From positions 11,106 through 75,105 of the forward strand of contig DAINRR010000006.1 in the NCBI GenBank assembly GCA_036741715.1: DNA of 64,000 nucleotides. The letters are read 5' to 3'. Origin of the DNA: Gemmatimonadales bacterium (lineage in GTDB: Bacteria > Gemmatimonadota > Gemmatimonadetes > Gemmatimonadales > GWC2-71-9). Below, piece after piece: positions 9,158 through 60,009 of this stretch. The position numbers and the translations under genes were made by a program. Each line of letters opens with the position of its first letter. Position 1 is the first letter of the stretch. Below the pieces are notes generated by a model. It saw only the letters and a program-made list of their open reading frames with translations. It did no database searches and was not told where the DNA came from.

Positions 9158-9286
9158 CGCGCCGTAGCCGCGCCTTTTTCCTCACCGACATGCGTAGCGA
9201 TGGTGCCGGTCCGGCGAGCTCGATCGCCGACCTTGGGGCCGCTGTACCGCCATCCCACCCGGGAGGCGGCCACCCAAGGAGGCCCC

Positions 9287-10465: not shown

Positions 10466-10486
10466 GGACCATTCGCGCAGCGACCG

Positions 10487-10518
10487 GAGGCCGGCACATC
10501 GACGGGTGTGCCGGCCTC
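10487..10518. terminator. Bidirectional stem-loop between convergent genes
   Basis: gaggccggcaca-tcgacggg-tgtgccggcctc is a perfect 12-bp stem. It lies between the stop at 10465 (+) and the stop at 10524 (-). Confidence 0.55.
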
Positions 10519-10523
10519 GTCCA

Positions 10524-11033
10524 TCAGGGCGGCGAAGCCGCGAATGGCTCCCGTTCCCAGCGCCACACGGGACCGTCCTCCGGATCGACGACGGTGGCGG
10601 TCCGGGCAAAGCCCAGCCGCGCAAGGAGCCGGGCGGAGGCTCCCGGCTCGGGCAGCGTGTGTGCGCGGAGCGTACGGACGGGGTGGCCACTCGCCAGCGC
10701 ACAGAGCGCGCGCGCCATGGCGGTCGCGATGCCCCGCCCTTCCCCGCCCGGAAAGGTGAAGTACGCGATCTCAACGGCACCCTCCGCGTCGGGCGCCCCC
10801 TTGAACCCGCAGGTGCCTACGACCAGTCTCGTCGACGGATCCACTGCGAGGTAACCACCCCAGGGTGGATCGATCCCTTCGCGCTCCTGAAAGGCGGCGG
10901 AATTCGTGGCCACGACCTGAATCAGGGCGGCATGGGCCCCCATGCCGAAGCCGGCGCTCCGCGAGTAGCGGATCGGATCTTCGGCCAGCCGGCGGAACTC
11001 GGCGGCGCTGAACTCCAGCAGATCGATCTCCAT
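10524..11033 (-). CDS. GNAT family N-acetyltransferase
   Basis: ORF 10524..11138 trimmed to MEIDLLEFSAAEF. Acetyl-CoA motif region EGRGIATAMARAL and ARLLARLGF. Confidence 0.8.
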   Translation of the reverse strand: MEIDLLEFSAAEFRRLAEDPIRYSRSAGFGMGAHAALIQVVATNSAAFQEREGIDPPWGGYLAVDPSTRLVVGTCGFKGAPDAEGAVEIAYFTFPGGEGRGIATAMARALCALASGHPVRTLRAHTLPEPGASARLLARLGFARTATVVDPEDGPVWRWEREPFAASPP

Positions 11034-11136
11034 GCATCCGACTCCCAGTCGAAACCTCGGGCCCCTCTCTTCCGTCCCATTGCGATATACTCTCTCCGTA
11101 CGGGCGGAATCGCCACCCTGAACCAAGGAGCAGTGC

Positions 11137-13509: not shown

Positions 13510-14624
13510 TCCGATCGCTTCGCGCCCTCGTGGCGCTCGCCGTCGGGGCCGCCTGCGCGGCCCCGGGGGCGACGCGCCAGACCCCCACGCCGGCCGGGAC
13601 GGGCGTGGGGGTCCGGCTTTACGTCCCGAATCAGAACGACGCCTCGGTGACCATTCTCGATGCGGCGTCCGGCACCACGCTCACCACCGTCGACCTGCGG
13701 ACAGCGGGCTTCACCGCGAATGCCAAGCCCCACGCGGTCGTCGCCGAGCCCGACGGCTCGGCGTGGTATGTCTCCCTGATCGGTGACAACTTCGTCGCCA
13801 AGTTCGATTCCGCAAACCGGTACGTCGGCCGAGTCCCGATGGAAACGCCGGGGATGCTGGCACTCGACGCGAGGCACGATCGCCTGTACGCGAGCCGGTC
13901 GATGACCGCGGTGAGCCCGCCGGCCAGCATCGGCGTGATCCGCCGGAGCGACATGCGGCTCCTCGAAGAGCTCGACGTCCTCTTCCCTCGACCGCACGCG
14001 ATCGCGGCCGCGACGACCTCGGGACGCGTGTACGTCTCGGGACTCGGCGACAACCGGATCGCGGTGGTGGATACGGCCGGACGTGTCGAACTGGTGCAGG
14101 TCCCGGGTCCACTGCATGCCTATGTGACGTTCGCGCTCTCGCCGGACGGGTCCCGGCTCGCGGCCACGACGCAGCTGACGTCGAGCCTCGTCGGGTTCGA
14201 TGTGCGGACCGGCAGGCCGGTGCCGGCCGCCTCGGTCCAGGTTCTCCCCTTCGGCTATCAGGTGAGCTGGTCGCCGGACGGGCACTCGATCTGGCTCGGC
14301 AACCAGCGGAGCGGGGCCGTCACGATGGTGGATGCCCGGACCTGGGCCGTGCGTGACGTGATCCGCGATTCCGCATTCGCGGAGCCGCATGGGGTCGCGA
14401 TCTCGCGGGACGGTGCCACTGTCTACGTCTCGAGCCACGGCGTTCAGGCCGGCTCGTCGACACCCACCCCGGCCGACACGATGCACGGTGGCATGCACGC
14501 CGGTGAGGGTGCCGCGCGCGGTGGCGGCACGCTCGCGATCATCGATGCCGGTACCCGCACCGTCCGCAGGGTGGTCCGAGTCGGGCGTTACGCCGTGGCC
14601 ATCGATCTCGGCGGGACCCGATGA
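13506..14624 (+). CDS. YVTN/YncE-type beta-propeller repeat protein (secreted)
   Basis: ATGA overlap with the upstream gene. Signal peptide LVALAVGAACAAP. Repeats such as LYVPNQNDASVTILDAASG, VYVSGLGDNRIAVVD, ALSPDGSRLAATT and AISRDGATVYVSS. Confidence 0.8.
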   Translation: MIRSLRALVALAVGAACAAPGATRQTPTPAGTGVGVRLYVPNQNDASVTILDAASGTTLTTVDLRTAGFTANAKPHAVVAEPDGSAWYVSLIGDNFVAKFDSANRYVGRVPMETPGMLALDARHDRLYASRSMTAVSPPASIGVIRRSDMRLLEELDVLFPRPHAIAAATTSGRVYVSGLGDNRIAVVDTAGRVELVQVPGPLHAYVTFALSPDGSRLAATTQLTSSLVGFDVRTGRPVPAASVQVLPFGYQVSWSPDGHSIWLGNQRSGAVTMVDARTWAVRDVIRDSAFAEPHGVAISRDGATVYVSSHGVQAGSSTPTPADTMHGGMHAGEGAARGGGTLAIIDAGTRTVRRVVRVGRYAVAIDLGGTR

Positions 14625-16489
14625 AGGGAGCCAGGCTGCTGGTGCTCGCGGCCGCGGCACTCGGCTGCGCGTCGCGGTCCGCAGCGACGCAGGGCGCGGC
14701 ACCGTCATTCATGCCGGGTCTCGAGCGGCGCGTTGCCTCGATTCCGATTGCCGACAGCGCGGGCCGGCAGTTTGCACTCCCGTTCCTGGGCGGTCTGGAG
14801 CGGCCGCGGCCGCAGCTCGTGGACATCGACGCGGATGGGGACCTCGACCTGTTCGTGCAGGAGTTCACGAACCGGATGACGTTCTTCGAGCGCACCGATT
14901 CGGCGGGGGAGGCGCGCTGGACGTGGCGTACCGATATGTGGGAGCAGCTCGAGATCGGCGACTGGAGCCGGTTCATCGACCTCGACGGCGACGGCGACCA
15001 GGACGTGCTCGCCGAATCGCCCTACAGCTTCATCCGCTGGTACCGGAACGACGGCTCGGCGCGCCAGGCGCGGTTCACGCTCGCGGCGGACACGCTCTAC
15101 GACGTGAGCGGCGAGCCGATCTTCGCGGACCGGCAGAACATCCCGCAACTCGCCGACCTCGACTGCAACGGGAGGATCGACCTCATGCTGGGTCGAGTGG
15201 ACGGCACGATCACGCGCTTCGAGCTGCGCAACATCGAGGGGAACGCCCCGCGCTTCGGGTTCATCACCGATCGCTTCGAGGGAATCCAGATTCTCGGCGG
15301 GGACGCGACGCCCGGCGGTCCGCCACCAATGGCCATCCCCGGAGCCGGTGGCGTCACGCCGAGCCTGCACGGCGCGAACACGATGGCGCTGGTGGACCTC
15401 GACCGCGACAGCGACCTCGACATCCTCTGGGGCGATTTCTTCGAGCCGGGCCTGCTCTGGATCCGGAACGATGGCGGATGTGGCGGGCCGTCGATGCGCG
15501 AGCCGCCGGTCCCCTTTCCGGCGGGAAGCCCGATCCGGACCAGCGGCTACAACGCGCCGACCGCGGGCGACCTCGACCGCGACGGGGATCTCGATCTTCT
15601 GGTCGGCGTGCTGGGCGGGGCATACAATCCGACCCGCACCTCCCGCGACAACCTGTACCTTCTCGAACAGACCGCGCCGCGCACGTTCACGGTTCGCACC
15701 ACCCGCTTTCTCGACGGCTTCGACCTCGGCAGTGAGACCAGCCCGGCCCTGTTCGATCTCGACGCCGACGGCGATCTCGACATGCTCGTGGGGAACAAGA
15801 TCGAGCCGGAAGGGGATGTGGCCGGCCTGTACCTCCTGGAGAACGTCGGATCGGCGCAGGCCCCGTCGTTCCGGATGCGGCCGCGGCTCCCGATCGGCCC
15901 CGCATATCACTATTCCCCCGCGCTCGGCGACCTCGACGGCGATGGTGATGCGGATCTCGTGCTCGGCACGTGGCGCGATGCGCTGCTCTATTACCGCAAC
16001 GATGGCTCCCGGGAGGAGCCGCGCTTCGTGCTCGCCGATTCGATGCTCGCGCAGCTCTCGCGCGGGAGCCACGCCTCCCCGACGCTCGGTGATGTCGACG
16101 GCGACGGCGATCTCGACCTCTTCGTCGGAGAAGCCTCGGGAACGATCAACCACTTCCGGAACGACGGCAGCCGATCCGCGCCGAAGTTCAGCCTGGTGTC
16201 CGACGAGTGGAACGGATTGCAGGAGGGCCGGCGGACGGCACCGCGCCTCGTCGACATCGATGGCGACACTGACCTGGACCTGGTCATCGGCACCGAGGCG
16301 GGAACACCGGTGCTGTTTCGCAATACCGGGTCCGCGAGGCGTGCCGAGTTCATCCGGGAGCGCGAGGCGGCGGCATGGCCGGCGCTGTCGGTGCCGGCGT
16401 TCGGCGATCTGGATGGAGACGCGGATCTGGATGTCGTGATCGGGAACGCGGCGGGCGGGCTGATGCACCTGGAGGGAGCCGGGAGATAG
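14621..16489 (+). CDS. FG-GAP/VCBS repeat protein (CRTAC1/ASPIC-like) lipoprotein
   Basis: ATGA overlap with the upstream gene. Lipobox LAAAALGC. At least 8 repeats of the D-x-D-G-D-G-D-x-D calcium-loop type (DIDADGDLDLFV, DLDGDGDQDVL, DLDRDGDLDLLVG, DVDGDGDLDLFVG ...). Confidence 0.85.
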   Translation: MKGARLLVLAAAALGCASRSAATQGAAPSFMPGLERRVASIPIADSAGRQFALPFLGGLERPRPQLVDIDADGDLDLFVQEFTNRMTFFERTDSAGEARWTWRTDMWEQLEIGDWSRFIDLDGDGDQDVLAESPYSFIRWYRNDGSARQARFTLAADTLYDVSGEPIFADRQNIPQLADLDCNGRIDLMLGRVDGTITRFELRNIEGNAPRFGFITDRFEGIQILGGDATPGGPPPMAIPGAGGVTPSLHGANTMALVDLDRDSDLDILWGDFFEPGLLWIRNDGGCGGPSMREPPVPFPAGSPIRTSGYNAPTAGDLDRDGDLDLLVGVLGGAYNPTRTSRDNLYLLEQTAPRTFTVRTTRFLDGFDLGSETSPALFDLDADGDLDMLVGNKIEPEGDVAGLYLLENVGSAQAPSFRMRPRLPIGPAYHYSPALGDLDGDGDADLVLGTWRDALLYYRNDGSREEPRFVLADSMLAQLSRGSHASPTLGDVDGDGDLDLFVGEASGTINHFRNDGSRSAPKFSLVSDEWNGLQEGRRTAPRLVDIDGDTDLDLVIGTEAGTPVLFRNTGSARRAEFIREREAAAWPALSVPAFGDLDGDADLDVVIGNAAGGLMHLEGAGR

Positions 16490-16522
16490 CACCGCCGTTG
16501 CGGGTGCCGGCGGTGAGATGCA

Positions 16523-16574
16523 GACGAGGGATCTGCTCCGCGAGTCCTGGGACTCGCCGGGCAGATCCCTCGTC
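16523..16574. terminator. Long nested palindrome between convergent genes
   Basis: The outer stem gacgagggatctgc / gcagatccctcgtc is 14 bp. It encloses an inner stem gcgagtc-ctgg-gactcgc. The whole element is a nearly continuous hairpin of about 23 bp. Confidence 0.55.
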
Positions 16575-16588
16575 ACTTGTCCGCCTCG

Positions 16589-16620
16589 GGACGACCGCGG
16601 GTGCCAGCCCCCGGTCGTCC
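16589..16620. terminator. Second stem-loop between convergent genes
   Basis: ggacgaccg-cgggtgccagccc-cggtcgtcc is a 9-bp stem. It lies just 3' of the minus-strand stop at 16627. Confidence 0.45.
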
Positions 16621-16626
16621 GGTCGA

Positions 16627-18690
16627 TCAGGGTGTCAGTGGCTGCTTCGCCTCCAGCTTCGCCGACCAGAGTCCCGAGTTGAAGTCGGTGAAGAGGATGT
16701 GCCCCTTCCACGGCATCGCGTTCATGACGAAGGAGGCGTTCGGCGTATACCCCTGCGGATCGTACGGTTTGTACACCGCGATCTCGCGCCGCTGGTCCGC
16801 AAGGTTTCCGACCAGCTCGCCCGAGACGTCCACCACCCGCAGGCCGCCATCGTAGTAGGCCTGGTACATCACGTCGTCCTCGACGATGATGTCGTGGGAG
16901 CCGAACTCCTCCTGGTGGTACTTCGCGATGTTCCGCGGATGGCGCGGGTCGGTGAAGTCGACGATGTGGGTATACCCGGCGGACGTCTGCGGGACGCCGC
17001 CACGCTCCGGGTTGACGGCGCTCAGGCCGTAGTTCGTGCCCTCCCAGACGCGTCCGGAGCGCGACATGATTTCGTCACCGAGGAAGAGATAGACCTTCCC
17101 GGTCGACTTCTGGTGATAGGGAAAGATCTCGTGCGTCGCGCCGCTCGTGGTCGGGTAGGTGGCGATGAGCACGGGCTTCTCGATCGTCCCGCCGTACTTG
17201 CCGTTGCCGACATCCACCGCGACGACCCCGGTGCCCCATTCCGACGAATAGGCGATGCCGTCGTGGACCCAGACGTCGTGCACGCGCGACTGCGGGTGAT
17301 CGTACTCGCTGACGAATTTCGGCTGATAGATGTCGCGCACGTCCACGATGACGTACTTGTCGCCGCCCGAGATCGCGAACAGGTAGTCGTTGGTGGCGAA
17401 CATGTTGTGCACGCCGCCGGTCAGCTGCTCGTTGAAGGTGGCGGCCACCTTCGGGTGCGCCGGATTGGCGAGATCGAGGATCACGACGCCGTTCACGCGA
17501 TTCGATGCGCCTTCACGGGACAGCACCCCGTACCGTCCGTCCGGTGACACCGTGACGTCGTTGATGATGCGGGCATCCACCTTGATCGAGTCGGACCGCA
17601 CCGGGTTGCCGAGGTCGGTGATGTCCATGACGTAGGCCCAGCCGTCCCCGCCCCACGTGCCGACGAGGGCGTAGTCCCGGCCATCCTTCCCCGTGAACGG
17701 CCAGAAGTCGGAGGTATGCACGTGAGTGATCGAGCCCCGGCCCGTGATGTTGATCCGGCGGCGCGCCTCCCTCGGCCGCACCTCGAGCACGCGGCGCGCG
17801 GTGGCCGTACCGGCCGATGCCAGGAGGGTGTACCGGCCGGGCACTTCCGCGGCGAAGAGACCGCGATCGATGATTCCGGTCGCGCCGGGAGCGGCGATCG
17901 TGTCGTCGGGCGTGTAGGTGTAGCTCCAGGTGATCGGCACGTCGGGCACCGCGACGCCGTTGGCCCGCTTGGCCGCGGCCTTGAGATGAATCACATCGCC
18001 CGTCCGGATGCTCGATTCGTCGAGCGTGATCGATACGCTTGCGACCGGGTTGGCCGCGACCGTATGCGCCACCTGCGCCGAGGAGCCCTCAGCTTCGGCA
18101 GTGATGGTGACGGGGCCGGGCCGATGTGCGGTGACGTGGCCAAAGCGATCCACGCTCGCCACCGATTCGTTCGAGCTGCGCCAGCGCCAGTTGAGGTCGC
18201 GCCCGGGGCGCTCGCTGCCGTCCGCGTGCAGCGCGCGGGCGCGGTGCGGCAGGGTCACGCCCGTGTAGAGGCGGCCGGAGTCGGCCACGAGCTCGACCTT
18301 CGCGAGGGGCGGCCACTTCACCGTGACCGGAATGGTGAGGGTCACCGGCGGCGTTGCCGTGTCCGGGGGGACGGTGGACACGTTCACCTGGTACGTGCCG
18401 GCGCGCACGCCGCGAATGCCGTCGAAGGTGATCTGCAGGCCGTTCCGGGCACCGCTCACTCGCAGCGGCGGGTTTTCGACCACCCCGCCCCGCGCATCGA
18501 AGGCCGTCAACTTGACCGGCACGACCGAGTCGCCGGCGACGATCTCGAGGCTGGCCGGCTCCGCGACGAGGCGGGTCACGACGCGCACCGAATCCCGTCC
18601 CTGCTGGGCAGCGAGAGGTGCGGCGAGGCCGAGCGCCAGCACCGCCGGCGCCATGCGCCTGACGAAGCACCGGGCATGCGTTACGTTCAT
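16627..18690 (-). CDS. Secreted Ig-like (Big_2-type) domains plus LVIVD-repeat beta-propeller protein
   Basis: 687-aa ORF with signal peptide APAVLALGLAAPLAAQQ. N-terminal Ig-like repeats (VTLTIPVTVK, VTITAEAEGSSAQVAHTV). C-terminal propeller segments AYVMDITDLGNPV, VVILDLANPAHPK, YVIVDVRDIYQPK and GLRVVDVSG. Confidence 0.8.
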   Translation of the reverse strand: MNVTHARCFVRRMAPAVLALGLAAPLAAQQGRDSVRVVTRLVAEPASLEIVAGDSVVPVKLTAFDARGGVVENPPLRVSGARNGLQITFDGIRGVRAGTYQVNVSTVPPDTATPPVTLTIPVTVKWPPLAKVELVADSGRLYTGVTLPHRARALHADGSERPGRDLNWRWRSSNESVASVDRFGHVTAHRPGPVTITAEAEGSSAQVAHTVAANPVASVSITLDESSIRTGDVIHLKAAAKRANGVAVPDVPITWSYTYTPDDTIAAPGATGIIDRGLFAAEVPGRYTLLASAGTATARRVLEVRPREARRRINITGRGSITHVHTSDFWPFTGKDGRDYALVGTWGGDGWAYVMDITDLGNPVRSDSIKVDARIINDVTVSPDGRYGVLSREGASNRVNGVVILDLANPAHPKVAATFNEQLTGGVHNMFATNDYLFAISGGDKYVIVDVRDIYQPKFVSEYDHPQSRVHDVWVHDGIAYSSEWGTGVVAVDVGNGKYGGTIEKPVLIATYPTTSGATHEIFPYHQKSTGKVYLFLGDEIMSRSGRVWEGTNYGLSAVNPERGGVPQTSAGYTHIVDFTDPRHPRNIAKYHQEEFGSHDIIVEDDVMYQAYYDGGLRVVDVSGELVGNLADQRREIAVYKPYDPQGYTPNASFVMNAMPWKGHILFTDFNSGLWSAKLEAKQPLTP

Positions 18691-46008: not shown

Positions 46009-46902
46009 TCAGCGCGGCATCCGTGAAGCTGCCTTCATCGCGGCTTCGACCATGGCCCGTTCCTCGGAGCCGAGTGGCTGGAGCGGTCGGCGCGGAGCGC
46101 CACCGGGCAGCCCCAGGAAATCGAGTGCTGCCTTGATCCCGGGCACGCTGAACCGTCCGACCACGGCCTTGTGAAGATCGGCCGCCGCGCCCTGGGCGCG
46201 CGCGCATTCCTCGCGCTCGCCTGACCGCCAGAGCCGGTAGAGCTCCGTGCATCCGTGCGGTGCGATCGCGGCGAGAGCGAGGATGCCGGCCGAAGCACCG
46301 GCGTCGAGCGCGTCCCGCAGTACCGCGGCAGTTCCGACGATGACCGCGAACTCGTCGGCGCACGTACGCGAGAGCTCGCGAAGTGCAGCGACATCTCCCG
46401 ACGAATCCTTGACGCCGACGATGTTGGGATGCTCCGACAACCGCGCGATGAGCGCCAGGTCGAGGTCGACCGATCGGAACGCGACCGGAACCTGGTAGAG
46501 AATGAGCGGTACGGGAGAGGCGTCGGCCACACGCGTGTAATGATCGAGCAGTGCTGACGGCGTCATCAGCGACCGGAAGAACCCTGGCGGCTGCGCCAGC
46601 ACGGCATCGGCGCCAGCGGCGGCCGCCTCCCTGCAGAGCCGCATCGTGGCCCGCGTGGACTCCGCACCCGTACCCGCAAGCAGGAGGCGATCACCGAGCA
46701 ACTCACGCCCTGCCGCCAGCATCCCGCCGCGCTCGTCCCCGTCGACGAGCACCCCTTCCCCGGTCGACCCGAAAAGCACGAGTCCTGCCAGCGGCGCGTC
46801 GAGGAGGAACCGCGCGCTCAGCCGGAAGGCCGCGACATCGACATCTCCGGACGTCCCGTCGAATGGCGTGGTGGCTGCAGCGAAGATGCCTTTCAGGTCC
46901 AT
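46009..46902 (-). CDS. Dihydrodipicolinate synthase/N-acetylneuraminate lyase (DapA) family lyase
   Basis: ORF 46009..47043 trimmed to MDLKGIFAAATTPF. Motifs GSTGEGVLV, ILYQVP and VGVKDSSGD (Schiff-base Lys context). Substrate is not assignable. Confidence 0.85.
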   Translation of the reverse strand: MDLKGIFAAATTPFDGTSGDVDVAAFRLSARFLLDAPLAGLVLFGSTGEGVLVDGDERGGMLAAGRELLGDRLLLAGTGAESTRATMRLCREAAAAGADAVLAQPPGFFRSLMTPSALLDHYTRVADASPVPLILYQVPVAFRSVDLDLALIARLSEHPNIVGVKDSSGDVAALRELSRTCADEFAVIVGTAAVLRDALDAGASAGILALAAIAPHGCTELYRLWRSGEREECARAQGAAADLHKAVVGRFSVPGIKAALDFLGLPGGAPRRPLQPLGSEERAMVEAAMKAASRMPR

Positions 46903-49274: not shown

Positions 49275-49485
49275 GGGACCTCCGAAGGTGGGTGGTCGAG
49301 ACTTCCGGATATCGCGCCGCCCGGAGGCGGGCGCCAGACCCGACGGTCGCTCGGGCTTGTGGGACGGCCGGGGACCCTGCATAGTCGAGGAGATACCCCC
49401 CCAGACAGCCCATGCGCGCCGGACGTCGCCTGAAAGCCGGCGGATCGGGCCGTGGTCGCGCCTGCATGAAGGAGGATTCACCCGT

Positions 49486-49614: not shown

Positions 49615-50775
49615 ATGTTCTCACCCAATTCCCATCCCTGGTCGGCCGACGAGACCCTCGGCCGGCATCTGGAGCGGCGGGGCGTTTCCCGGCGCGAGTT
49701 CCTCGAATTCTGCGGCGGGCTCTGCGCGATGCTCGGGCTCGGCAGCAGCTTCGTTCCCCGCATGGCGCACGCGCTCCAGACGATGAAGCGCCCGAGCGTC
49801 ATCTGGCTCCAGCTGCAGGAATGTACCGGCTGCGTGGAGAGCGTGATCCGTACGTCGGAGCCGACCATCGGCAACCTCCTCCTCGACCTCATCTCCCTCG
49901 ACTATCAGCACACACTCATGGCGGCCGCTGGGCACCAGGCCGAGGGGGCGCTGCAGGCGGCCATGAAGGAAAACGCGGGCAAGTACCTGCTCGTGGTGAC
50001 CGGCTCGGTTCCGCTCGCGGAGAACGGGATCTACCTCACGATCGGGGGCCGCACGGCGAAGACGATCCTCGAAGAGGCCGCCGTCGGGGCGGCCGGCGTC
50101 ATCGCGGTCGGCGCCTGCGCCCACTGGGGCAGCGTGCAGGCGGCGCGACCGAACCCGACCGGGGCCGTCGGCGTCGGCGACATCGTCAAGGACAAGCCGG
50201 TGGTGAACATCGCGGGGTGCCCGCCGATTTCCGATGTCGTCACCGCCACCATCGTCCACTACCTGACCATGGGCCGGATGCCCGCCACCGACGGCGACGG
50301 GCGTCCCACCTTCGCCTATGGCTCACGGATTCACGACCAGTGCTCCCGGCGCGCCAACTTCGACGCCGGTCAGTTCGTGACGAGCTTCGACGACGAGGCC
50401 GCCCGCAACGGATGGTGCCTCTATACCGTCGGCTGCAAGGGCCCGTCGACGTTCTCACCCTGTCCGATCTTCCAGTGGAACAGCGGGACCAGCTGGCCGA
50501 TCGGCGCGGGGCATCCCTGCATCGGCTGCACCGAGCGTCAGTTCTGGGATACGATGACGCCGTTCTATCACCGACTGCCCGACGTCGCCGGCTTCGGGGT
50601 CGAACGGACAGCCGACCTCATCGGCGCGGCCCTCGCCGCTGGTGCCACGGCTGGCGTCGCGGCCCATGCCGCCGCGACTGCGATCCATCAGTCCCGGCGC
50701 CGGCCGCTGCCGGTCATCGATGCACCACCCGTGCGATCCGATCCGCCGGCCCCGCCAACGACTGGAAAGGAGTGA
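49615..50775 (+). CDS. hyaA: [NiFe]-hydrogenase small subunit (Tat-exported, membrane-anchored)
   Basis: ORF 49201..50775 trimmed to ATG 49615. Twin-arginine signal RRGVSRREFLEF. FeS ligand motifs LQECTGCVES, GACAHWGSVQAARPNPTGA, GCPP, HDQCSRR, CLYTVGCKGP and CIGC. C-terminal hydrophobic anchor LIGAALAAGATAGVAAHAAATAI. Confidence 0.95.
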   Translation: MFSPNSHPWSADETLGRHLERRGVSRREFLEFCGGLCAMLGLGSSFVPRMAHALQTMKRPSVIWLQLQECTGCVESVIRTSEPTIGNLLLDLISLDYQHTLMAAAGHQAEGALQAAMKENAGKYLLVVTGSVPLAENGIYLTIGGRTAKTILEEAAVGAAGVIAVGACAHWGSVQAARPNPTGAVGVGDIVKDKPVVNIAGCPPISDVVTATIVHYLTMGRMPATDGDGRPTFAYGSRIHDQCSRRANFDAGQFVTSFDDEAARNGWCLYTVGCKGPSTFSPCPIFQWNSGTSWPIGAGHPCIGCTERQFWDTMTPFYHRLPDVAGFGVERTADLIGAALAAGATAGVAAHAAATAIHQSRRRPLPVIDAPPVRSDPPAPPTTGKE

Positions 50776-50779
50776 CGCG

Positions 50780-52491
<1,712 letters not shown>

Positions 52492-52495
<4 letters not shown>

Positions 52496-53211
52496 GCACC
52501 ACGACCGCGCCGGTCGAGCATCTCCCGCGCACCGGCAACTACCGGTGGGTCCAGCTTTGGGGCGTGCCGCTCCGGGTCATGCACTGGGCCGCCGCGATCG
52601 CGATCGTCCTGCTCGTCGTGACCGGGCTGTACATCGGCAGGCCGTACTTCATGACGAGCGGGGAGGCCAGCTCCCACTTCCTGATGGGATGGATGCGGCT
52701 CCTGCATTTCATCGCGGCCGGCACCCTCGTCATGACGGCGATCGTCCGGATCTACTGGCTCGTCGCCGGGAACCGGTACGAGCGGTGGAGCGCGCTCATC
52801 CCCTGGCACCCGCGCGACATCCGGAACCTCTTCCGGCAGGCACGCGCGTACCTGCTCGTCCGCCCGGAGGACGCGCCACCGTACCTCGGCCACAATCCGC
52901 TCCAGCAGCTCAGCTATACGTCCCTGTATGCGGTGGCACTGATACAGGTGATCACCGGATTCGCGCTGTATGGGCAGTACGATTCGTCGAGCATCTTCTT
53001 CCGCCTCCTCAACTGGATCGGCCCGATGCTCGGCGGGATGCCGAACGTCCGCTTCCTGCATCACGTGCTCACGTGGGTGTTCGTGATCTACATCCCGATC
53101 CATGTGTACATGTCGATCCGCGCCGACGTGCTCGATCGCAACAGCACCATTTCGTCGATCGTGACCGGGGGTCGCATGGTACGCGCCGACGAGGAGTTCG
53201 AGGATGACTGA
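52492..53211 (+). CDS. hyaC: Ni/Fe-hydrogenase b-type cytochrome subunit
   Basis: C-terminal 239 aa of ORF 51592..53211. ATGA overlap with the large-subunit stop. 4 TM helices with conserved His (RVMHWAAAIAIV, RLLHFIAAG, LGHNPLQQ, VRFLHHVLTWVFVIYIPIHVY). Confidence 0.9.
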
Positions 53212-53713
53212 CGTGCGCACGGGAACCTTCGTGATCGGTCTCGGCAACCCGCTGATGCTGGACGACGGTATCGGCCTCGCGGCGCTCGAGCGGCTCTCCT
53301 GCCGGCCCGACATCCCGGAAGGCATCCAGCTCGTCGATGGGGGCACCTGGGGGATGAACCTCCTCCCGCTCATCGAAACCGCCGGCACCGTGATCTTCCT
53401 CGACGCCATCCGGCTCGGGTGCGAGGCCGGCACGATCCACGAGCTCGAGGGCGACGCCGTTCCGCGGCGCCTCGCCCACAAGCTCTCGCCCCATCAGATC
53501 GACCTCGGCGAAGTACTCGCGATCGCCATGCTGCGCGGGACGCTCCCTACGCGGCTCCTCGCGCTGGGCATCGAGCCAGCTGAAGTCGAGATGGGAACGG
53601 GGCTCAGCCCCGCGGTCGAGGCGGCCATGCCGGAGCTCCTCGCGCGGGTCGTGAGGCGGATCGAGCACTTCGCGGCGGGCGACTTGGAGGGCGTGCCGGC
53701 TTGCACGAGCTGA
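53204..53713 (+). CDS. hyaD: Hydrogenase maturation endopeptidase
   Basis: 169-aa ORF with VIGLGNPLMLDDGIGL, FLDA and SPHQ motifs. Overlaps the cytochrome b stop by 8 nt. Confidence 0.9.
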   Translation: MTDVRTGTFVIGLGNPLMLDDGIGLAALERLSCRPDIPEGIQLVDGGTWGMNLLPLIETAGTVIFLDAIRLGCEAGTIHELEGDAVPRRLAHKLSPHQIDLGEVLAIAMLRGTLPTRLLALGIEPAEVEMGTGLSPAVEAAMPELLARVVRRIEHFAAGDLEGVPACTS

Positions 53714-53961
53714 GCCTCGCGCTCGAGGTCTGCCGCATCGCGGAAGCCCGCCTCGACGGCGCGGAGGCCCGCAGGCTGCGGCGCGTCGGCATCGAGGTCG
53801 GCGAGGACGCCAATATCGAGGTCGCCAACTTCGAGTTCTGCCTCGAGGCGCTGCTGGGCGCGCCGCCCTTCGGCGCGGCGACGCCCATCGTTACCCGCTG
53901 CCCGGGCGAGGATCTCCGGCTCGCATTCATGGAGGTGGACGATGACGGTCCGGACGATTGA
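53701..53961 (+). CDS. hypA: HypA-like nickel metallochaperone lacking the zinc-finger module
   Basis: 86-aa ORF with a TTG start. The N-terminal MHELSLA is the Ni-binding MHE motif and the C-terminus is EDLRLAFMEVDD. It has no CxxC pairs, only 3 isolated Cys. Confidence 0.7.
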   Translation: MHELSLALEVCRIAEARLDGAEARRLRRVGIEVGEDANIEVANFEFCLEALLGAPPFGAATPIVTRCPGEDLRLAFMEVDDDGPDD

Positions 53962-54613
53962 CGTGCGCGAGCGGGTCATGGCGAAGAACGACGAGATCGC
54001 CGCCGAGGTGCGTCGACGTCTCGCCGCTGCCGGTGTGCCGGCGCTCAACCTCGTTTCGTCGCCCGGCTCGGGAAAGACCACCCTCCTCGAGCGCACCCTG
54101 GATACCCTCGGGCGCGAGCTCAGGATCAGCGTCGTGACCGGTGACGTCCAGACGCAGAACGACGCCGACCGGCTCGCTGCGCGCACGACCCGGCTCGTCC
54201 AGGCGGTCGTCACCGGAGGCGCCTGCCACCTCGACGCGCGACAGGTGCAGGAAGCGCTCGACGCGCTCGACCTCGACGACACCGACCTTCTCTTCATCGA
54301 GAACGTCGGCAACCTCGTCTGCCCGGCGGGGTGGGACCTCGGGGAAAGCGCCAAGGTCGTTCTCTTCTCGGTCACCGAGGGCGAGGACAAGCCGCTCAAG
54401 TATCCCGCCATGTTCCGCAACTCGACGACGGCCGTGCTCACGAAGATCGACCTCCTGCCGCACGTTCCGTTCGATGTCGAGCGCGCCGTCGCAGCCGCTC
54501 GGAGCGTCAATCCGGGCCTCGAGTTCTTCTTCGTCTCGGCGCTCACGGGCGAGGGGATGGAGGCGTGGTTCGACTTTCTCCGGTCCCGCGCACGGATGGT
54601 CACGGCGTCGTGA
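53942..54613 (+). CDS. hypB: Hydrogenase nickel-incorporation GTPase HypB
   Basis: 223-aa ORF with P-loop SSPGSGKTTLL, GGACHLDA, ENVGNLVCP and TKIDLL. Confidence 0.95.
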   Translation: MTVRTIDVRERVMAKNDEIAAEVRRRLAAAGVPALNLVSSPGSGKTTLLERTLDTLGRELRISVVTGDVQTQNDADRLAARTTRLVQAVVTGGACHLDARQVQEALDALDLDDTDLLFIENVGNLVCPAGWDLGESAKVVLFSVTEGEDKPLKYPAMFRNSTTAVLTKIDLLPHVPFDVERAVAAARSVNPGLEFFFVSALTGEGMEAWFDFLRSRARMVTAS

Positions 54614-56919
54614 CCGCCTCCGCCGCAGCACCGGCCGCACGGCGGATCCGGGTGACGGGCGTCGTCCAGGGGGTGGGGTTTCGCCCCTTCGTCCATCGCC
54701 TCGCCGTTCGGCACGGGCTTGGCGGATGGGTGAGGAATGCCGGTGGGGAGGTCGAGATCACGGTCGCAGGCGCGGAATCCGCCATCACCGCGTTCATCGG
54801 TGCGATCGAGCTGGAGGCGCCGCCACTCGCGCGGATCGAAACGGTTCACGTCGAGCCGTCGATGGATGCGCCGGCGGATGGTTTCGCCATCGTGCCGAGC
54901 CGGGACCCCGCGGGGATGCGGGAGCCGGTCTCGCCCGATGTGGCGCTCTGCGCGGCGTGCGAGGCGGAGCTGTTCGACCCGGCCGACAGGCGGTTCCGCT
55001 ACCCCTTCATTACTTGCACCGACTGCGGACCGCGCTTCACGGTGATCGAGGCCATGCCGTACGACCGCGTCCGCACGAGCATGCGCGCCTTTGCGCAGTG
55101 CCCCGCCTGCGAACGGGAATATGCGTCACCCTCCGACCGGCGCTTCCACTCCGAGACCAACAGCTGCCCTGCCTGCGGGCCGAGGCTCTGGCTCGAGCGG
55201 GGGGACCAGGTCGTCGATGGTTCGGCGCATGCGCTGGAGTCCGCCGCAGGCCTTCTCCGCGAGGGAGCCATCGTGGCCCTGCGCGGGCTCGGAGGCTTCC
55301 ATCTGGCCGTCGATGCCACGTCGGACCGAGCGGTAGTTCGCCTTCGCTCGCGCAAGCGGCGGGATGCGAAGCCGCTGGCGGTGATGGTGCAGAGCGTGTC
55401 CCACGCCGCCGAGCTGGTCGAGCTGACTGATGAGGCGAGTGCGCTGCTCCAGTCCCCGGTGCGCCCGATCGTGATCCTGCCCGAACGCGAGGCAAGTCCG
55501 GTCAGCCGGTTCATTGCGCCCGGGATCGGGTCCGTCGGCGTTATGCTGCCATCCACCCCGCTGCATCATCTGCTGCTCGACCTCGTGTGCCACCCCCTCG
55601 TCATGACGAGCGGGAACCTGAGTGACGAGCCCATCGCGACCGGCAACGCAGAGGCGCGCGCGCGGCTCGCCGGAATCGCGGACGCCTTCCTCCTGCACGA
55701 CCGCGAGATCGTTTCCCGATACGACGACTCGGTGATCCGGCCGGTGCGGCAGGGCCGCGTCATCATCCGGCGCGCCCGGGGCCTCGCCCCGCTTCCGCTC
55801 CGCCTGCCGCTCGCGAGCCCGGTGCCACTCGTCGCGGTCGGGGCGGATCTCAAGAACACCTTCACGGTGGTAGACGGCTCCCGCGCCTATGTGAGCCAGC
55901 ACATCGGCGACCTCGACAGCCTGGAAACAGTCACGCATTTCAGGGAGACGCTCGCCCGGTTCGAATCGCTCTTCCGGATCGCGCCGTCCGCGGCAGCGCG
56001 GGACCTGCACCCTGGATATCTCTCGACGCGCCTCGCCGAGGAGCTCGGGCTGTCGCCGGTCATCGGCGTGCAGCACCATCATGCGCACATCGCCGCAGTG
56101 CTGGCCGAGCATGGTGAGCGGGATGCCGTCGTCGGCCTGGCATTCGACGGCACCGGCTACGGCGACGACGGAAACGTCTGGGGCGCGGAGGTGCTGCTCG
56201 CCGACCTGCACGGCTACCGGCGACTGGCGCAGCTGCGCTACGCCCCGATGCCCGGCGGCGACCTCGCCGCCCGCGAGCCCTGGCGTGCCGCGCTCGGCTA
56301 CCTCTCGCTCGAGCCGGATCGTGCCCGCGCCTTCGAGGGGGCGTTCGAAAAAGTACCGCCGCGTGAGCTCGCGATGGCGCGTGCCCAGCTGGACCGCCGC
56401 CTCAATGCGCCGCTCGCTTCGTCCCTCGGCCGCCTCTTCGACGCGGCGGCCGCGGTGATCGGTGTCCATCACGGGGGGCAGTTCGAGGGGCAGGCTGCGA
56501 TGGAGCTCGAGGCGCTCGCCGGCAATCTCGCGGGGATTGCGCGCGAAGTGCCGATCGACGACGCGGGCGCCGTCTGGCAGATGGACCCGCTGCCGCTGCT
56601 CGGTGAATTGGGCGAGCGCCAGAGGTCGGGCGCGGATCGAGCCGACCTCGCCGCGGATTTCCATGCGAGCCTCATCGCGGCCACCGTGCGACTGGCGACG
56701 GCGAGCTGCGAGCGGTGCGGAATCGGCACGGTGGCCCTCGGCGGCGGCGTCTTCCAGAATGCACGGTTCGCCACGCAGATCCCTGCGGCCCTCGAAGCTC
56801 GCGGAATGCGGGTGCTCCTTCCGCGCGAGCTTGGGCCGAACGATGGCGCCGTGAGCTATGGTCAGGCGGCAGTCGCGGCAGCGCGGCTGGCGGGCACCAG
56901 CGCTTCCTTCTCGAACTGA
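54610..56919 (+). CDS. hypF: Carbamoyltransferase HypF
   Basis: ORF 54331..56919 trimmed to GTG 54610 (GTGA overlap). Acylphosphatase domain VTGVVQGVGFRPFV. Two zinc fingers, CAACEAE...CTDCGPRF and CPACERE...CPACGPRL. YrdC-like GLGGFHLAVDA and a Kae1-like C-terminus. Confidence 0.95.
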   Translation: MTASAAAPAARRIRVTGVVQGVGFRPFVHRLAVRHGLGGWVRNAGGEVEITVAGAESAITAFIGAIELEAPPLARIETVHVEPSMDAPADGFAIVPSRDPAGMREPVSPDVALCAACEAELFDPADRRFRYPFITCTDCGPRFTVIEAMPYDRVRTSMRAFAQCPACEREYASPSDRRFHSETNSCPACGPRLWLERGDQVVDGSAHALESAAGLLREGAIVALRGLGGFHLAVDATSDRAVVRLRSRKRRDAKPLAVMVQSVSHAAELVELTDEASALLQSPVRPIVILPEREASPVSRFIAPGIGSVGVMLPSTPLHHLLLDLVCHPLVMTSGNLSDEPIATGNAEARARLAGIADAFLLHDREIVSRYDDSVIRPVRQGRVIIRRARGLAPLPLRLPLASPVPLVAVGADLKNTFTVVDGSRAYVSQHIGDLDSLETVTHFRETLARFESLFRIAPSAAARDLHPGYLSTRLAEELGLSPVIGVQHHHAHIAAVLAEHGERDAVVGLAFDGTGYGDDGNVWGAEVLLADLHGYRRLAQLRYAPMPGGDLAAREPWRAALGYLSLEPDRARAFEGAFEKVPPRELAMARAQLDRRLNAPLASSLGRLFDAAAAVIGVHHGGQFEGQAAMELEALAGNLAGIAREVPIDDAGAVWQMDPLPLLGELGERQRSGADRADLAADFHASLIAATVRLATASCERCGIGTVALGGGVFQNARFATQIPAALEARGMRVLLPRELGPNDGAVSYGQAAVAAARLAGTSASFSN

Positions 56920-56929
56920 GGACCTTCCC

Positions 56930-57229
56930 ATGTGCCTTGGCATTCCCGGACGAGTCGTCGAGGTGCACGACGACCGCGGACTCGCGATGGGCGTCGTGGA
57001 CTTCGGCGGCGTACGCCGCGAGGTCTGTCTCGCCTATATCGCGGATCAGGTGCAGCCCGGCGACTACGCGCTGGTGCACGTCGGCTTCGCCATCTCGCGC
57101 ATCGACGAGGCGGAGGCGCGGCGCACGTTCGAGGCGCTCCGGGAGATGAGCCAGCTGGACGAGCTCGACTGGCTGCGTGAAGTTGCGGATCAGGAGCTCG
57201 TGGAGCTGGAGCAGCGAGCGGCACCATGA
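56930..57229 (+). CDS. hypC: Hydrogenase assembly chaperone HypC
   Basis: ORF 56858..57229 trimmed to [12 protein letters not shown], the invariant N-terminal Cys motif. Confidence 0.9.
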
Positions 57230-58338
57230 GATACCTCGACGAGTACCGGGACGGCACCATCGCCCGCTCCCTCGCGGCGCAGATCCGGCGCACCGCGACG
57301 CGCCGGTGGGTGCTGATGGAAGTCTGCGGCGGGCAGACCCACACGATCGTCAAGCAGGGACTCGACGAGCTCCTCGGCGATGCCGTCGAGATGATTCACG
57401 GCCCCGGCTGTCCCGTGTGCGTCACGCCGCTCGAGCAGATCGACAAGGCGCTCGAGCTCGCGGCGCGTCCCGAGGTGATCTTCACCTCGTTCGGGGACAT
57501 GCTCCGCGTTCCGGGGAGCGAGTGCGACCTCCTGCAGGTGCGCGCACGCGGTGGCACCGTGCGCATCGTCTACTCGCCGCTCGACGCCCTCGAGCTCGCC
57601 GTGCGGAACCCCGACCGCGAGGTCGTCTTCTTCGCCGTCGGGTTCGAGACCACCGCCCCCGCGAATGCCATGGCCGTCTGGCGCGCACGCCAGCTCGGGA
57701 TCCGCAACTTCAGCGTCCTCGTCTCCCACGTGACCGTGCCCCCGGCCATGGTGGCGCTCCTGAGCGACCCGGCCAACCGCGTCCAGGCGTTCCTTGCCGC
57801 CGGGCATGTCTGCACCGTGATGGGGTGGAGCGAGTACGAGCCGATCGCGGCAGGATTCCGGGTGCCGATCATCGTCACGGGCTTCGAGCCGCTCGACATC
57901 CTCGAAGGGATTCACCTCGCGGTCCGCCAGCTCGAGGAGGGCCGCCACGAGGTCGAGAACCAGTATGCGCGCGCCGTGACCCGGGAGGGCACGGTTCCCG
58001 CTCGAACGCTCGTCGAGGAGGTCTTCGAGCTGGCGGACCGGAAATGGCGCGGGATCGGCGAGATTCCGGCCAGCGGCCTCGCCCTGCGGGCGGAGTTCGC
58101 AGCATTCGACGCCGAGCGGCGCTTTTCCCTTGCGACGACGTCGGTGCCGGAGCCGGTTGAGTGCCGGGCCGGCGCCGTGCTGCGTGGCCAGCTCAGGCCG
58201 CACCAGTGTCCCGCCTTCGGCCGGAGCTGTACGCCCGAGCACCCGCTCGGCGCGCCGATGGTCTCGTCCGAAGGTGCGTGCGCTGCCTATTACAACTACG
58301 GGAGGTTCCGCGCGTCGGAGCCGTTGGAGGTCACATGA
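57226..58338 (+). CDS. hypD: Hydrogenase formation protein HypD
   Basis: 370-aa ORF with ATGA overlap. Motifs [18 protein letters not shown] and FETTAP. Confidence 0.95.
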
Positions 58339-59399
58339 CCACGACCGTGCGACTGGCCGGTGGCGTCGCCTGCCCGGCGCCCGCGATCCCGACCGAGCGC
58401 GTGCAGCTGGGCCACGGATCGGGAGGAAAGCTGAGCGCGGCCCTCGTGCGAGAGCGCTTTCTTCCGCAGCTCTCGAATCCCGCGCTCCGGCAGCTGGGAG
58501 ACGCCGCCATCCTGCAGGTGTTCGATGGCGACATCGCGATGTCGACCGACACCTTCGTCGTGAGCCCGATCGAGTTTCCCGGCGGCAACATCGGCTCGCT
58601 CGCGGTGCACGGCACGCTGAACGACATCGCGATGATGGGCGCGGAGCCGAGGTTCCTCTCGGCGGGCTTCGTGATCGAGGAGGGATTCGAGCTCGAGGTG
58701 CTCGATCGCGTGGTCGCCGCGATGGCCGGCGCAGCGCGTGCCGCCGGTGTCCCGCTGGTCACCGGAGACACCAAGGTCGTCGAGCGGGGCAAGGCGGACC
58801 GGATCTACATCAACACGACGGGCATCGGAACGCTGGAGGGAACCTGCCGGCCCGCACCCGATCGCGCCGCAGGCGGCGACGCGGTCATCGTGAGCGGGGA
58901 GATCGGCCGGCACGGCATGGCGATCATGTCGGCGCGCGAGGGTCTCGGCTTCGAGACGGAGATCGAGAGCGACTCGGCAGCGCTCTATCCGCTGGTCGCG
59001 CGGCTGGCCGGACGGTTCGGTACGCACGTCCACGTGCTGCGGGATCCCACCCGCGGCGGGGTCGCGAGTGCGCTCAACGAGATCGCGGCCGCCTCGAAAC
59101 GCGGCGTCGTGCTCGACGAGGAATCGCTGCCGGTTCCGGGGCCCGTCGGAGCCGCCTGCGCCGTCCTGGGCCTCGACCCGCTCTATGTGGCCAACGAGGG
59201 GATCATGGTGGTGATGCTTCCGGACCGGTTCGCGGACGATGCCGTCGCAGCGCTCCGGGCGCTGCCGCTCGGCGCGCACGCCCGCCGCATCGGGCGCGTG
59301 GTGGACGACCATCCGGGCATGGTCGTGATGCGGACGGCCATGGGCGGCACCCGCGTCGTGGACATGCTGCCGGGCGACCAGCTCCCCCGCATCTGCTGA
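58335..59399 (+). CDS. hypE: Hydrogenase expression/formation protein HypE
   Basis: ORF 58161..59399 trimmed to ATG 58335 (ATGA overlap). AIR-synthase-like fold motifs GHGSGG and DPTRGG. C-terminal PRIC. Confidence 0.95.
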
Positions 59400-59469: not shown

Positions 59470-60009
59470 ATGGCGTTGCAGCGTGGCATCTACATCGTGC
59501 CGACCGACCGGTGGTACATCGAGCGCACCGTGTGGCTCATCGCAGGGTGCGTCCTGCTCGGTGCCACTGCGCTGGCGCTCCTGGCCGATCCACGCTGGGT
59601 GCTTCTCGTCATTGCGACTGCGCTCGCCTCGATTGCCGTTTCGCTGACGGGATTCTGCCTGGTCGGCAATGCGCTCCATCGCGCCGGGCTCGAGCCGATG
59701 CTGGGCCGGCCCTCGACGACGAGACCGCGCTGGTACTTCATGCAGACGGACAGCTGGTACCTGGAGCGCCGCATCTACCTCGCCGTCGGCATCAATCTCA
59801 CGATCGCGTCGATGCTGTCGCTCGTGCACAGCCCATGGTGGCTGGCCTTCACGGGTTTCGTCGGAGCCGCGATGGTCTGGTTCGCCGCGACTGGATTCTG
59901 CATCATGGCCAACGGCCTGTACTGGCTGGGCGCAGAGCCGCGACTCGCGCCAGGCTGTGCTCCCGCCGACGCGCCCGCGGCGACTCCCACGGGGACATCG
60001 GCTGCGTAA
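59470..60009 (+). CDS. Tandem YgaP-like (DUF2892) transmembrane domain protein
   Basis: 179-aa ORF with two homologous halves, each ending in a T-G-F-C motif: WYIERTVWLIAG...SLTGFCLVGNALHRAGLEP and WYLERRIYLAVG...AATGFCIMANGLYWLGAEP. Confidence 0.7.
   Translation: MALQRGIYIVPTDRWYIERTVWLIAGCVLLGATALALLADPRWVLLVIATALASIAVSLTGFCLVGNALHRAGLEPMLGRPSTTRPRWYFMQTDSWYLERRIYLAVGINLTIASMLSLVHSPWWLAFTGFVGAAMVWFAATGFCIMANGLYWLGAEPRLAPGCAPADAPAATPTGTSAA

Follow-up and report, generated by a model that had tools for sequence, protein, structure and literature searches.

The 64,000-nt stretch of Gemmatimonadales DNA analyzed here (contig DAINRR010000006.1, referred to as the window throughout; part of the 91.8-kb ENA metagenome contig ERZ27298529:k141_721399, Gemmatimonadales) contains, at positions 49615–59399 of the plus strand, ten co-directional open reading frames (ORFs) that very probably make up a self-contained operon, the product of which is a cytochrome-b-linked H2-uptake [NiFe]-hydrogenase bound to the membrane and facing the periplasm; the enzyme would be typical of Gemmatimonadales and most probably belongs to group 1f. 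Three structural genes are followed by seven maturation genes within 9.8 kb, and neighboring ORFs either overlap at their stop and start codons or are spaced by 4–10 nt. Profile searches with NCBIfam and Pfam matched all ten families at high scores (Table 1), and public gene calls on the ENA contig agreed with all ten ORFs, the exception being the ambiguous start of hypF (54565 in the public call versus 54610). The signature motifs of the endopeptidase and of HypB, HypC, HypD, HypE, and HypF were intact. An earlier model-made reading of the window from its letters alone (the sequence-only reading) had described ten co-directional, mostly overlapping hydrogenase and hyp genes, and the profile matches, intact motifs, and public calls confirmed this description. 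The G+C content of approximately 68% was uniform over the window and the locus, so the operon appears native. A pseudogene or remnant was ruled out, as each gene is intact and conserved, and so was a horizontal island, given the uniform GC content and the occurrence of the locus throughout Gemmatimonadales.

Conservation of the operon in Gemmatimonadales

In a set of contigs representing one genome per species, 358 stretches carried a relative of the large subunit, and the best 80 of them were mapped (the related loci in the following). These best 80 were 77–96% identical, and all but two were labeled Gemmatimonad*. The order large subunit–cytochrome b–endopeptidase was found in all 71 loci with enough sequence, in 60 of 68 it was followed by hypA-hypB, and 43 of 56 had all ten genes in the same order. 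Because of this recurrence of the core and of the full order, the arrangement has to be considered the norm for Gemmatimonadales; the synteny comparison with related genomes that the sequence-only reading had suggested was hereby carried out. Its view of an unusual gene context was not supported, since the same order is standard in Gemmatimonadales and the core is also found in E. coli hya and R. eutropha hoxKGZM, nor is the lack of accessory genes an oddity, as the genes in question are extras specific to groups 1d, 1c, or 1e. Thousands of metagenomic relatives of the large subunit were found, of which the named ones were from Gemmatimonadales.

A survey of marine Gemmatimonadota (PMC11316326) reported 'HyaABCD' as widespread in the phylum and cited work on Geobacter Hya. 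The cultured model G. aurantiaca has a group 2a hydrogenase only, and the Gemmatimonadales enzyme is therefore known from metagenome-assembled genomes (MAGs) and not from experiments. A MAG labeled Alphaproteobacteria (contig CBDCGJ010000022.1, 8842–19000) contained an operon copy with 81% identity, the Gemmatimonadales gene order, and a short HypA; such an operon under this label points to mis-binning or recent transfer.

Structural subunits and cofactor ligands

In the small subunit, a twin-arginine translocation (Tat) signal (RRGVSRREFLEF) and a membrane helix at the C-terminus were identified together with the ligands of three FeS clusters. Both the Tat signal and the C-terminal anchor had been claimed before and were substantiated, the former by the TIGR01409 match and the latter by alignment to the small subunits of the R. 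eutropha membrane-bound hydrogenase (MBH) and of A. vinosum, in which the helix aligned with the anchor helix of the MBH subunit. All 11 canonical FeS ligands aligned with those of E. coli HyaA, the numbering of which is used here. The proximal cluster is coordinated by C17, C20, C115, and C149, with Gly at position 19 and Ser at position 120, corresponding to a four-Cys [4Fe4S] cluster. The medial cluster is bound by C230, C249, and C252 and is of the [3Fe4S] type because of Pro242, and the distal [4Fe4S] cluster has a His plus three Cys set (H187, C190, C215, and C221). Owing to Gly19 and Ser120, both supernumerary cysteines of the group 1d enzymes are absent, in agreement with the sequence-only reading. 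No Cys was found at position 19 or 120 in the related loci with a readable motif, where position 120 was Ser or Asn, and the ECTGCVES motif was present in 71 of 76 loci. The top small-subunit matches in the PDB were R. eutropha MBH variants engineered to lack the extra cysteines.

In the large subunit, the L1 motif RICGVCTVVH and the L2 motif DPCMACGVH were identified, the latter followed by 15 residues after His556. Solved mature enzymes terminate at the His corresponding to the end of L2, which corroborates the motifs and the 15-residue tail noted previously. Both motifs and the tail length were near-invariant among the related loci, and a gene for a HyaD/HupD-family endopeptidase is located near the large subunit gene carrying this tail. 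The cytochrome b has four hydrophobic/transmembrane (TM) segments and shares the residues His31, His72, His190, and His204 with both HyaC and HoxZ; by this comparison, its set of haem ligands is complete.

Similarity and phylogenetic position

Among solved structures, the best match to the large subunit was A. vinosum 3MYR (773 bits), which we take to be a group 1e enzyme. It was followed by Salmonella Hyd-5 (694 bits), E. coli Hyd-1 (648 bits), Desulfovibrio enzymes (approximately 600 bits), and Hyd-2 (551 bits), with far lower scores for NiFeSe, Huc, and 1h structures. The amino acid sequence identity to the A. vinosum enzyme was 58% by BLASTP (58–61% overall); BLASTP values of 57.5% and 56% were obtained for plasmid-encoded enzymes from Bradyrhizobium BTAi1 and Methylovirgula, respectively. 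Lower identities were found to actinobacterial relatives (52–56%, BLASTP 52–54%), to proteobacterial 1d references (49–55%, BLASTP 49–53%; Hydrogenobaculum 43%), to HybC of group 1c (BLASTP 47%), and to 1b references (BLASTP 43–45%). The solved homologues with BLASTP identities of 58% (1e), 53% and 50% (1d), and 47% (1c) are all respiratory uptake enzymes.

The 1d and 1e controls from rhizobia, pHG1, Alteromonas, and Methylovirgula, together with the unclassified BTAi1 relative, were supplied by a search of plasmid proteins, which yielded no sequence identifiable as 1f. The Methylovirgula enzyme is of the Isp type: its small and large subunit genes are separated by a NarI-like gene, and an HdrD-like gene is located upstream. 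P0121 was the best full-length match among the 1.84 billion representatives at 50% identity that were searched. Its relatives belong to the Actinobacteria (Nocardioides, Xylanimonas, Raineyella, Corynebacterium, and Mobiluncus), and the genes on its contig are ordered small subunit (424 aa)–large subunit (582 aa)–cytochrome b (409 aa)–protease–hypA. The nearest fragment representative (P0122, 71%) was dropped as it came from a frameshift-ridden assembly.

Neighbor-joining trees were calculated from trimmed MAFFT alignments with 100 bootstrap replicates and subsequently with 200 replicates and more taxa. The Gemmatimonadales large subunits formed a clade with 100% bootstrap support and a long stem, the sister of which was a clade of actinobacterial cytochrome-b-linked enzymes (88% with 100 replicates and 82% with 200 replicates and more taxa). 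Grouping with the 1e references occurred in none of the 200 replicates. The clade with the 1d references, which itself had no bootstrap support, did not include the Gemmatimonadales clade, and HybC fell into a separate clade. Ser120 and several cytochrome b motifs are common specifically to the Gemmatimonadales and the actinobacterial clade. Membership in group 1c was ruled out, as HybC was 47% identical and located in a separate clade and as the window gave no tblastn match to HybA or HybB at E < 0.01.

Two related observations concern the reference loci. A cytochrome b from the actinobacterial sister clade (ENA ERZ1407734 contig-100_3715, 4390–5619) comprises 409 aa with an N-terminal extension of approximately 170 residues that HyaC, HoxZ, and the Gemmatimonadales protein do not have. 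The hydrogenase encoded on plasmid pBBta01 of Bradyrhizobium sp. BTAi1 (7959–18109) grouped with the 1e references; its small subunit has 325 aa and no anchor, a 303-aa protein with a weak LTXXQ match takes the place of cytochrome b, and the order of the hyp genes differs.

The link to group 1f is indirect but consistent. In Frankia (PMC11879354), HupL3 (approximately 573 aa) and HupS3 (410–420 aa) were classed as 1f by HydDB, and the gene order of synton-3 is hupS3-hupL3-hupC (cytochrome)-hupD-hypA3; the layout in the actinobacterial sister clade matches this synton. Table S5 of a soil microcosm study (bioRxiv 10.1101/2020.11.15.383943) lists hydrogenases per MAG as assigned by a HydDB-derived pipeline, with '[NiFe] Group 1f' as the sole group 1 or 2 entry for Bin78, PAD50000R3_10, and FLU20000R2_11. 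The 1f label was thus present in three of the six Gemmatimonadales MAG rows examined; these three MAGs are from the families GWC2-71-9 and Gemmatimonadaceae AG2 and represent genomes other than that of the window. A Steroidobacteraceae MAG is listed there as 1e. Our reading of the table columns was validated by the Mycolicibacterium row, which decodes to 1h plus 2a as stated in the text of that study. Literature phrase searches pairing Gemmatimonadota with 1f gave nothing further.

With a Gemmatimonadales clade at 100%, an actinobacterial sister at 82–88%, and published 1f labels, the unclassified clade considered in the sequence-only reading was not supported. Its fallback of an under-characterized lineage, for which group 1f was the example given, agrees with the sister clade in the neighbor-joining trees, the layout of Frankia synton-3, and the published MAG labels, with the indirect link to 1f as its restriction. 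The sequence-only reading was to be refuted by a large subunit nested in a well-characterized subgroup of identical gene order, and the evidence largely goes in this direction, except that 1f is itself barely characterized.

Maturation proteins and a HypA without zinc finger

The sequence-only reading had termed the fifth gene hypA-like, and this holds for the N-terminal half of HypA, whereas the zinc finger is absent. The product (mini-HypA) matched only positions 1–54 of the 112 positions of PF01155, and its NCBIfam score of 28 did not reach the cut-off of 88. When it was aligned with six canonical HypA/HybF proteins, approximately 33 residues that comprise the zinc-finger loop and both CxxC pairs proved to be cleanly deleted, with retention of the flanking strands and the MHE N-terminus. 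His2 is the sole histidine of the protein, and the MHE nickel motif is conserved among its relatives. An AlphaFold2 model (pLDDT 92.9) superposed in Foldseek on 3A43, 6G81, and 5YXY with TMq values of 0.71–0.81 (0.81 to 3A43). Of 64 related loci, 57 encode a HypA of 85–86 aa, and a database search gave 426 relatives; among the 120 listed, nearly all had 85–86 aa, and several carry the source name 'Zn finger protein HypA'. A frameshift in hypA was ruled out, as no CxxC remnant was present in any frame and the length was kept in 57 of the 64 loci. A 2025 review depicts HypA as consisting of a nickel domain and a zinc domain, mentions no exceptions, and contains no description of a zinc-less HypA.

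HypB contains the Cys-His/Cys metal site of the G domain and the motif ENVGNLVCP. A motif scan detected neither an N-terminal CxxCGC site nor a His-rich stretch in this protein, which has two His only. HypB and mini-HypA may accordingly constitute a pared-down pair for nickel delivery. The HypF domains comprise an acylphosphatase domain, two CxxC-N-CxxC zinc fingers, a YrdC domain, and a Kae1-like domain.

Upstream region and genomic neighborhood

The small-subunit gene is preceded by a 342-nt intergenic gap (according to the public gene calls) that contains the inverted repeat TGAAGGAGGATTCA (Table 1). Of 72 Gemmatimonadales loci, 10 contained a repeat of the form TGAAG-N4-YTTCA, or TGAA-N6-TTCA, no more than 320 nt upstream of the gene for the small subunit, with approximately 0.005 expected per locus, and the element is a plausible candidate operator. 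A second copy of TGAAG-N4-YTTCA is present in the window at 46024–46037. A scan of the locus for promoter and terminator consensus sequences remained at chance level.

Table 1. Genes of the hydrogenase operon and candidate upstream element, with positions in the window and the supporting profile matches or motifs.
Feature	Position	Strand	Evidence
Small subunit, 386 aa	49615-50775	+	TIGR00391, 446 bits; TIGR01409 Tat signal
Large subunit, 571 aa	50780-52495	+	PF00374, 779 bits
HyaC/HoxZ-type di-haem cytochrome b, 239 aa	52492-53211	+	TIGR02125, 186 bits (cut-off 121.5)
HyaD/HupD-type maturation endopeptidase, 169 aa	53204-53713	+	TIGR00072, 145 bits; GNPLMLDDG and SPH motifs
Mini-HypA, 86 aa, TTG start	53701-53961	+	PF01155, positions 1-54 only
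HypB GTPase, 223 aa	53942-54613	+	TIGR00073, 260 bits
HypF carbamoyltransferase	54565 (public call) or 54610 to 56919	+	TIGR00143, 769 bits; Pfam domains
HypC chaperone, 99 aa	56930-57229	+	TIGR00074, 87 bits; N-terminal MCLGIPG
HypD, 370 aa	57226-58338	+	TIGR00075, 487 bits; GFETT motif
HypE, 354 aa	58335-59399	+	TIGR02124, 423 bits; C-terminal PRIC
Inverted repeat TGAAGGAGGATTCA, candidate operator	49467-49480		148 nt 5' of the small-subunit ATG

The 64-kb window gave no tblastn match (E < 0.01) to HoxO/Q/R/T/V/L, HypX, HoxA/J/N, HyaE/F, HybA/B/E, or Isp1/2-like proteins, and cross-matches to the structural genes were produced only by subunits of regulatory hydrogenases. Likewise, Pfam scans of approximately 60 window ORFs revealed no nickel transporter and no H2 sensor. 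The lack of 1d, 1c, and 1e partner or accessory genes, and that of a nickel transporter and an H2-sensing regulator, had both been noted in the sequence-only reading and were reproduced. The operons of the related loci were also devoid of the 1d accessory genes HyaE/F and HoxO/Q/R/T/V.

The Pfam content of the window comprises UvrA, ABC transporters, FG-GAP and beta-propeller proteins, and small glyoxalase, GNAT, DinB, and DUF proteins. From approximately 20000 to 49500, a long run of small genes of the stress/detoxification type is located mostly on the minus strand, with four glyoxalase/VOC and two DUF1801 proteins, YjbR, YCII, DinB, SnoaL-like, PNPOx-like, and DUF3455 proteins, and three GNAT or hexapeptide acetyltransferases. 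Directly 3' of hypE, a plus-strand gene (59470–60009) encodes a protein with two YgaP-like (DUF2892-type) TM domains, a homologue of which occurs near the hydrogenase operon in either orientation in approximately 15 related loci. No respiratory genes were found in the window; the proposed setting of an aerobic soil heterotroph thus draws support from the taxon Gemmatimonadales but not from the window itself.

Proposed function

The direction of H2 uptake, the coupling to quinone, and the behavior towards O2 are predicted by homology with solved and genetically studied relatives. In the proposed sequence of events, HypC, HypD, HypE, and HypF would assemble the Fe(CN)2CO unit, mini-HypA and HypB would insert nickel, and the endopeptidase would then cut off the 15-residue tail after His556. 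The folded dimer of large and small subunit would be exported by the Tat system via the RR signal of the small subunit and be held on the outer face of the membrane by the C-terminal helix of the small subunit and the four-helix di-haem cytochrome b. H2 is expected to be split at the Ni-Fe site, with electrons passing via the proximal [4Fe4S], the medial [3Fe4S], and the distal [4Fe4S] cluster to the haems and into the quinone pool, which would be menaquinone in Gemmatimonadota. Protons released outside and taken up inside would contribute to the proton-motive force by a redox loop, and the electrons would finally be transferred to terminal oxidases or anaerobic reductases.

The four-Cys proximal cluster and the standard Val in RICGVC indicate no O2 protection of the 1d type by sequence, so any O2 tolerance would not use the 1d mechanism. 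The 1f enzyme of Acidobacterium ailaaui has been associated with the aerobic oxidation of H2, even at sub-atmospheric levels, and the functional note of HydDB describes 1f as 'oxygen-protecting', after Geobacter. It is conceivable, if doubtful, that the Gemmatimonadales enzyme works in air down to atmospheric H2 with its four-Cys cluster and after maturation by a zinc-free HypA. If so, its route to O2 tolerance would be unlike the [4Fe3S] cluster of 1d enzymes and unlike that of the 1h/2a enzymes, and an abundant soil phylum would represent a sizeable overlooked sink of atmospheric H2.

Evaluation of alternative assignments

Several points weigh against a functional group 1f uptake hydrogenase. 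By raw identity, the nearest labeled enzyme is that of A. vinosum (1e), which ranks above the actinobacterial clade. The deep nodes joining 1d, 1e, and the Gemmatimonadales clade were below 50%, and all trees were of the neighbor-joining type. As the trees were calculated without a confirmed 1f sequence (Geobacter Hya, Acidobacterium, Roseiflexus, Akkermansia, or Frankia), the 1f label derives from an inferred sister clade and from labels assigned by others to other MAGs. A nickel transporter, a regulator, and a terminal acceptor all have to be sought outside the 64-kb window. The competence of mini-HypA in nickel insertion is an assumption, since it does not have the zinc domain that, to our knowledge, is present in every characterized HypA.

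The first of these points would be accommodated by a group 1e (Isp-type) dimer in which cytochrome b replaces Isp1/Isp2, that is, a stable and bidirectional Hyn-like enzyme of sulfur or anaerobic metabolism. The four-Cys proximal cluster and a large subunit whose N-terminus is short are indeed common with 1e, and the k-nearest-neighbor classification of HydDB is similarity-based and has been documented to mix up 1d and 1e in borderline cases. However, the bootstrap replicates never united the enzyme with the 1e references, the latter have Gly at position 120 where it has Ser as in the actinobacterial clade, the NarI-like and HdrD-like genes present in the Isp-type locus of the Methylovirgula plasmid are missing here, and the published pipeline separates 1e in the Steroidobacteraceae MAG from Gemmatimonadales 1f; we therefore regard a 1e enzyme as very unlikely. 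It is also fairly improbable that the enzyme represents a distinct, unnamed group 1 subgroup, either of Gemmatimonadales or of these together with Actinobacteria, and not 1f proper. Its identity of at most 61% to any labeled enzyme, the fully supported clade with its long stem, the trees lacking a true 1f reference, and the wide span of 1f in the literature (Geobacter, Acidobacteria, Chloroflexi, Akkermansia, and Frankia) would fit such a subgroup, but a HydDB-derived pipeline of other authors files Gemmatimonadales enzymes as 1f, the layout of the sister clade matches that of the Frankia 1f genes, and the subunit composition equals that described for 1f. The order of small subunit, large subunit, cytochrome b, and protease, the C-terminal anchor, and an identity of 49–55% would also suit an O2-tolerant 1d enzyme of the Knallgas type, as represented by E. 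coli Hyd-1 and the R. eutropha MBH; with Gly and Ser in place of Cys19 and Cys120, no Cys at these positions in related loci with readable motifs, no HyaE/F or HoxO/Q/R/T/V in the window, and a position outside the (itself not bootstrap-supported) clade with the 1d references, such an enzyme is hardly tenable.

The identity of the enzyme would be unaffected if its main role were to provide electrons for the defense against O2 or reactive oxygen species (ROS), as proposed for Geobacter Hya, and not to conserve energy. This view is expressed in the HydDB note on 1f and was adopted for marine Gemmatimonadota (PMC11316326). Yet the Acidobacterium ailaaui 1f enzyme is credited with sub-atmospheric aerobic H2 oxidation, other work groups 1f with the high-affinity hydrogenases of soil, a quinone-reducing cytochrome b conserves energy whichever final acceptor is used, and the window offers no link between the operon and ROS enzymes, which makes a mainly protective role unlikely. 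A respiratory group 1f uptake hydrogenase is thus retained as the preferred assignment.

Significance

The sequence-only reading had suggested that the locus escapes the usual group 1 classes; what emerged is a lineage-typical, cytochrome-b-linked enzyme with standard clusters that MAG surveys have already noted and that typifies a known class as yet uncharacterized in biochemical terms. The operon is an ordinary genome feature and no new kind of system, the zinc-less HypA being a small curiosity. We know of no solved structure and of almost no biochemistry for group 1f. At the same time, 1f enzymes are counted in soil trace-gas surveys, and Gemmatimonadales, which are among the commonest soil bacteria, carry the operon very widely. 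Since 1f is little characterized and the operon so widespread, the compact, complete, and conserved locus offers a clean template for expressing and characterizing a 1f enzyme. The O2 tolerance of a 1f enzyme without extra cysteines, its affinity for H2, and the dispensability of the HypA zinc domain are thereby made testable.

Comparison with known systems

The closest counterparts are the group 1f systems of Geobacter sulfurreducens (HyaSLBP), Acidobacterium ailaaui/capsulatum, Roseiflexus, and Frankia (synton-3, HupS3-HupL3-HupC-HupD-HypA3), in which small subunit, large subunit, and cytochrome b are followed by protease and hypA as in the Gemmatimonadales operon. Further common traits are a large subunit of approximately 571–582 aa, a four-Cys proximal cluster, and the occurrence in aerobic soil bacteria. 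Frankia synton-3 is mostly devoid of hypB, whereas six hyp genes including hypB are united here in one operon. With 424 and 409 aa, respectively, the small subunit and cytochrome b of the actinobacterial sister clade exceed those encoded here (386 and 239 aa) in length, and the HypA encoded here differs from that of the 1f systems by the missing zinc finger. Canonical HypA/HybF proteins (T. kodakarensis 3A43, H. pylori 6G81, and E. coli) have in common with mini-HypA the MHE N-terminus, the alpha/beta fold of the nickel domain with TMq values of 0.74–0.81, and the adjacency to hypB, but contain a zinc loop with two CxxC pairs that mini-HypA does not have.

The A. vinosum enzyme (3MYR, 1e) is the closest solved structure, with the same four-Cys proximal and [3Fe4S] medial clusters and a large subunit whose N-terminus is short. 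The 1e enzymes have Isp1 (NarI-like) and Isp2 (HdrD-like) as partners and no anchor helix for cytochrome b, whereas in the Gemmatimonadales operon isp genes are absent and the cytochrome b is of the HyaC type. E. coli Hyd-1 (HyaABCDEF) and the R. eutropha MBH (HoxKGZ) agree with the present enzyme in gene order, Tat signal, anchor helix, and the four haem-binding His residues. These 1d enzymes are distinguished by Cys19/Cys120, HyaE/F, HoxO/Q/R/T/V, HypX, and an N-terminal extension of the large subunit, all of which are absent here; with Cys19 and Cys120 missing, the Gemmatimonadales hydrogenase has no [4Fe3S] cluster.

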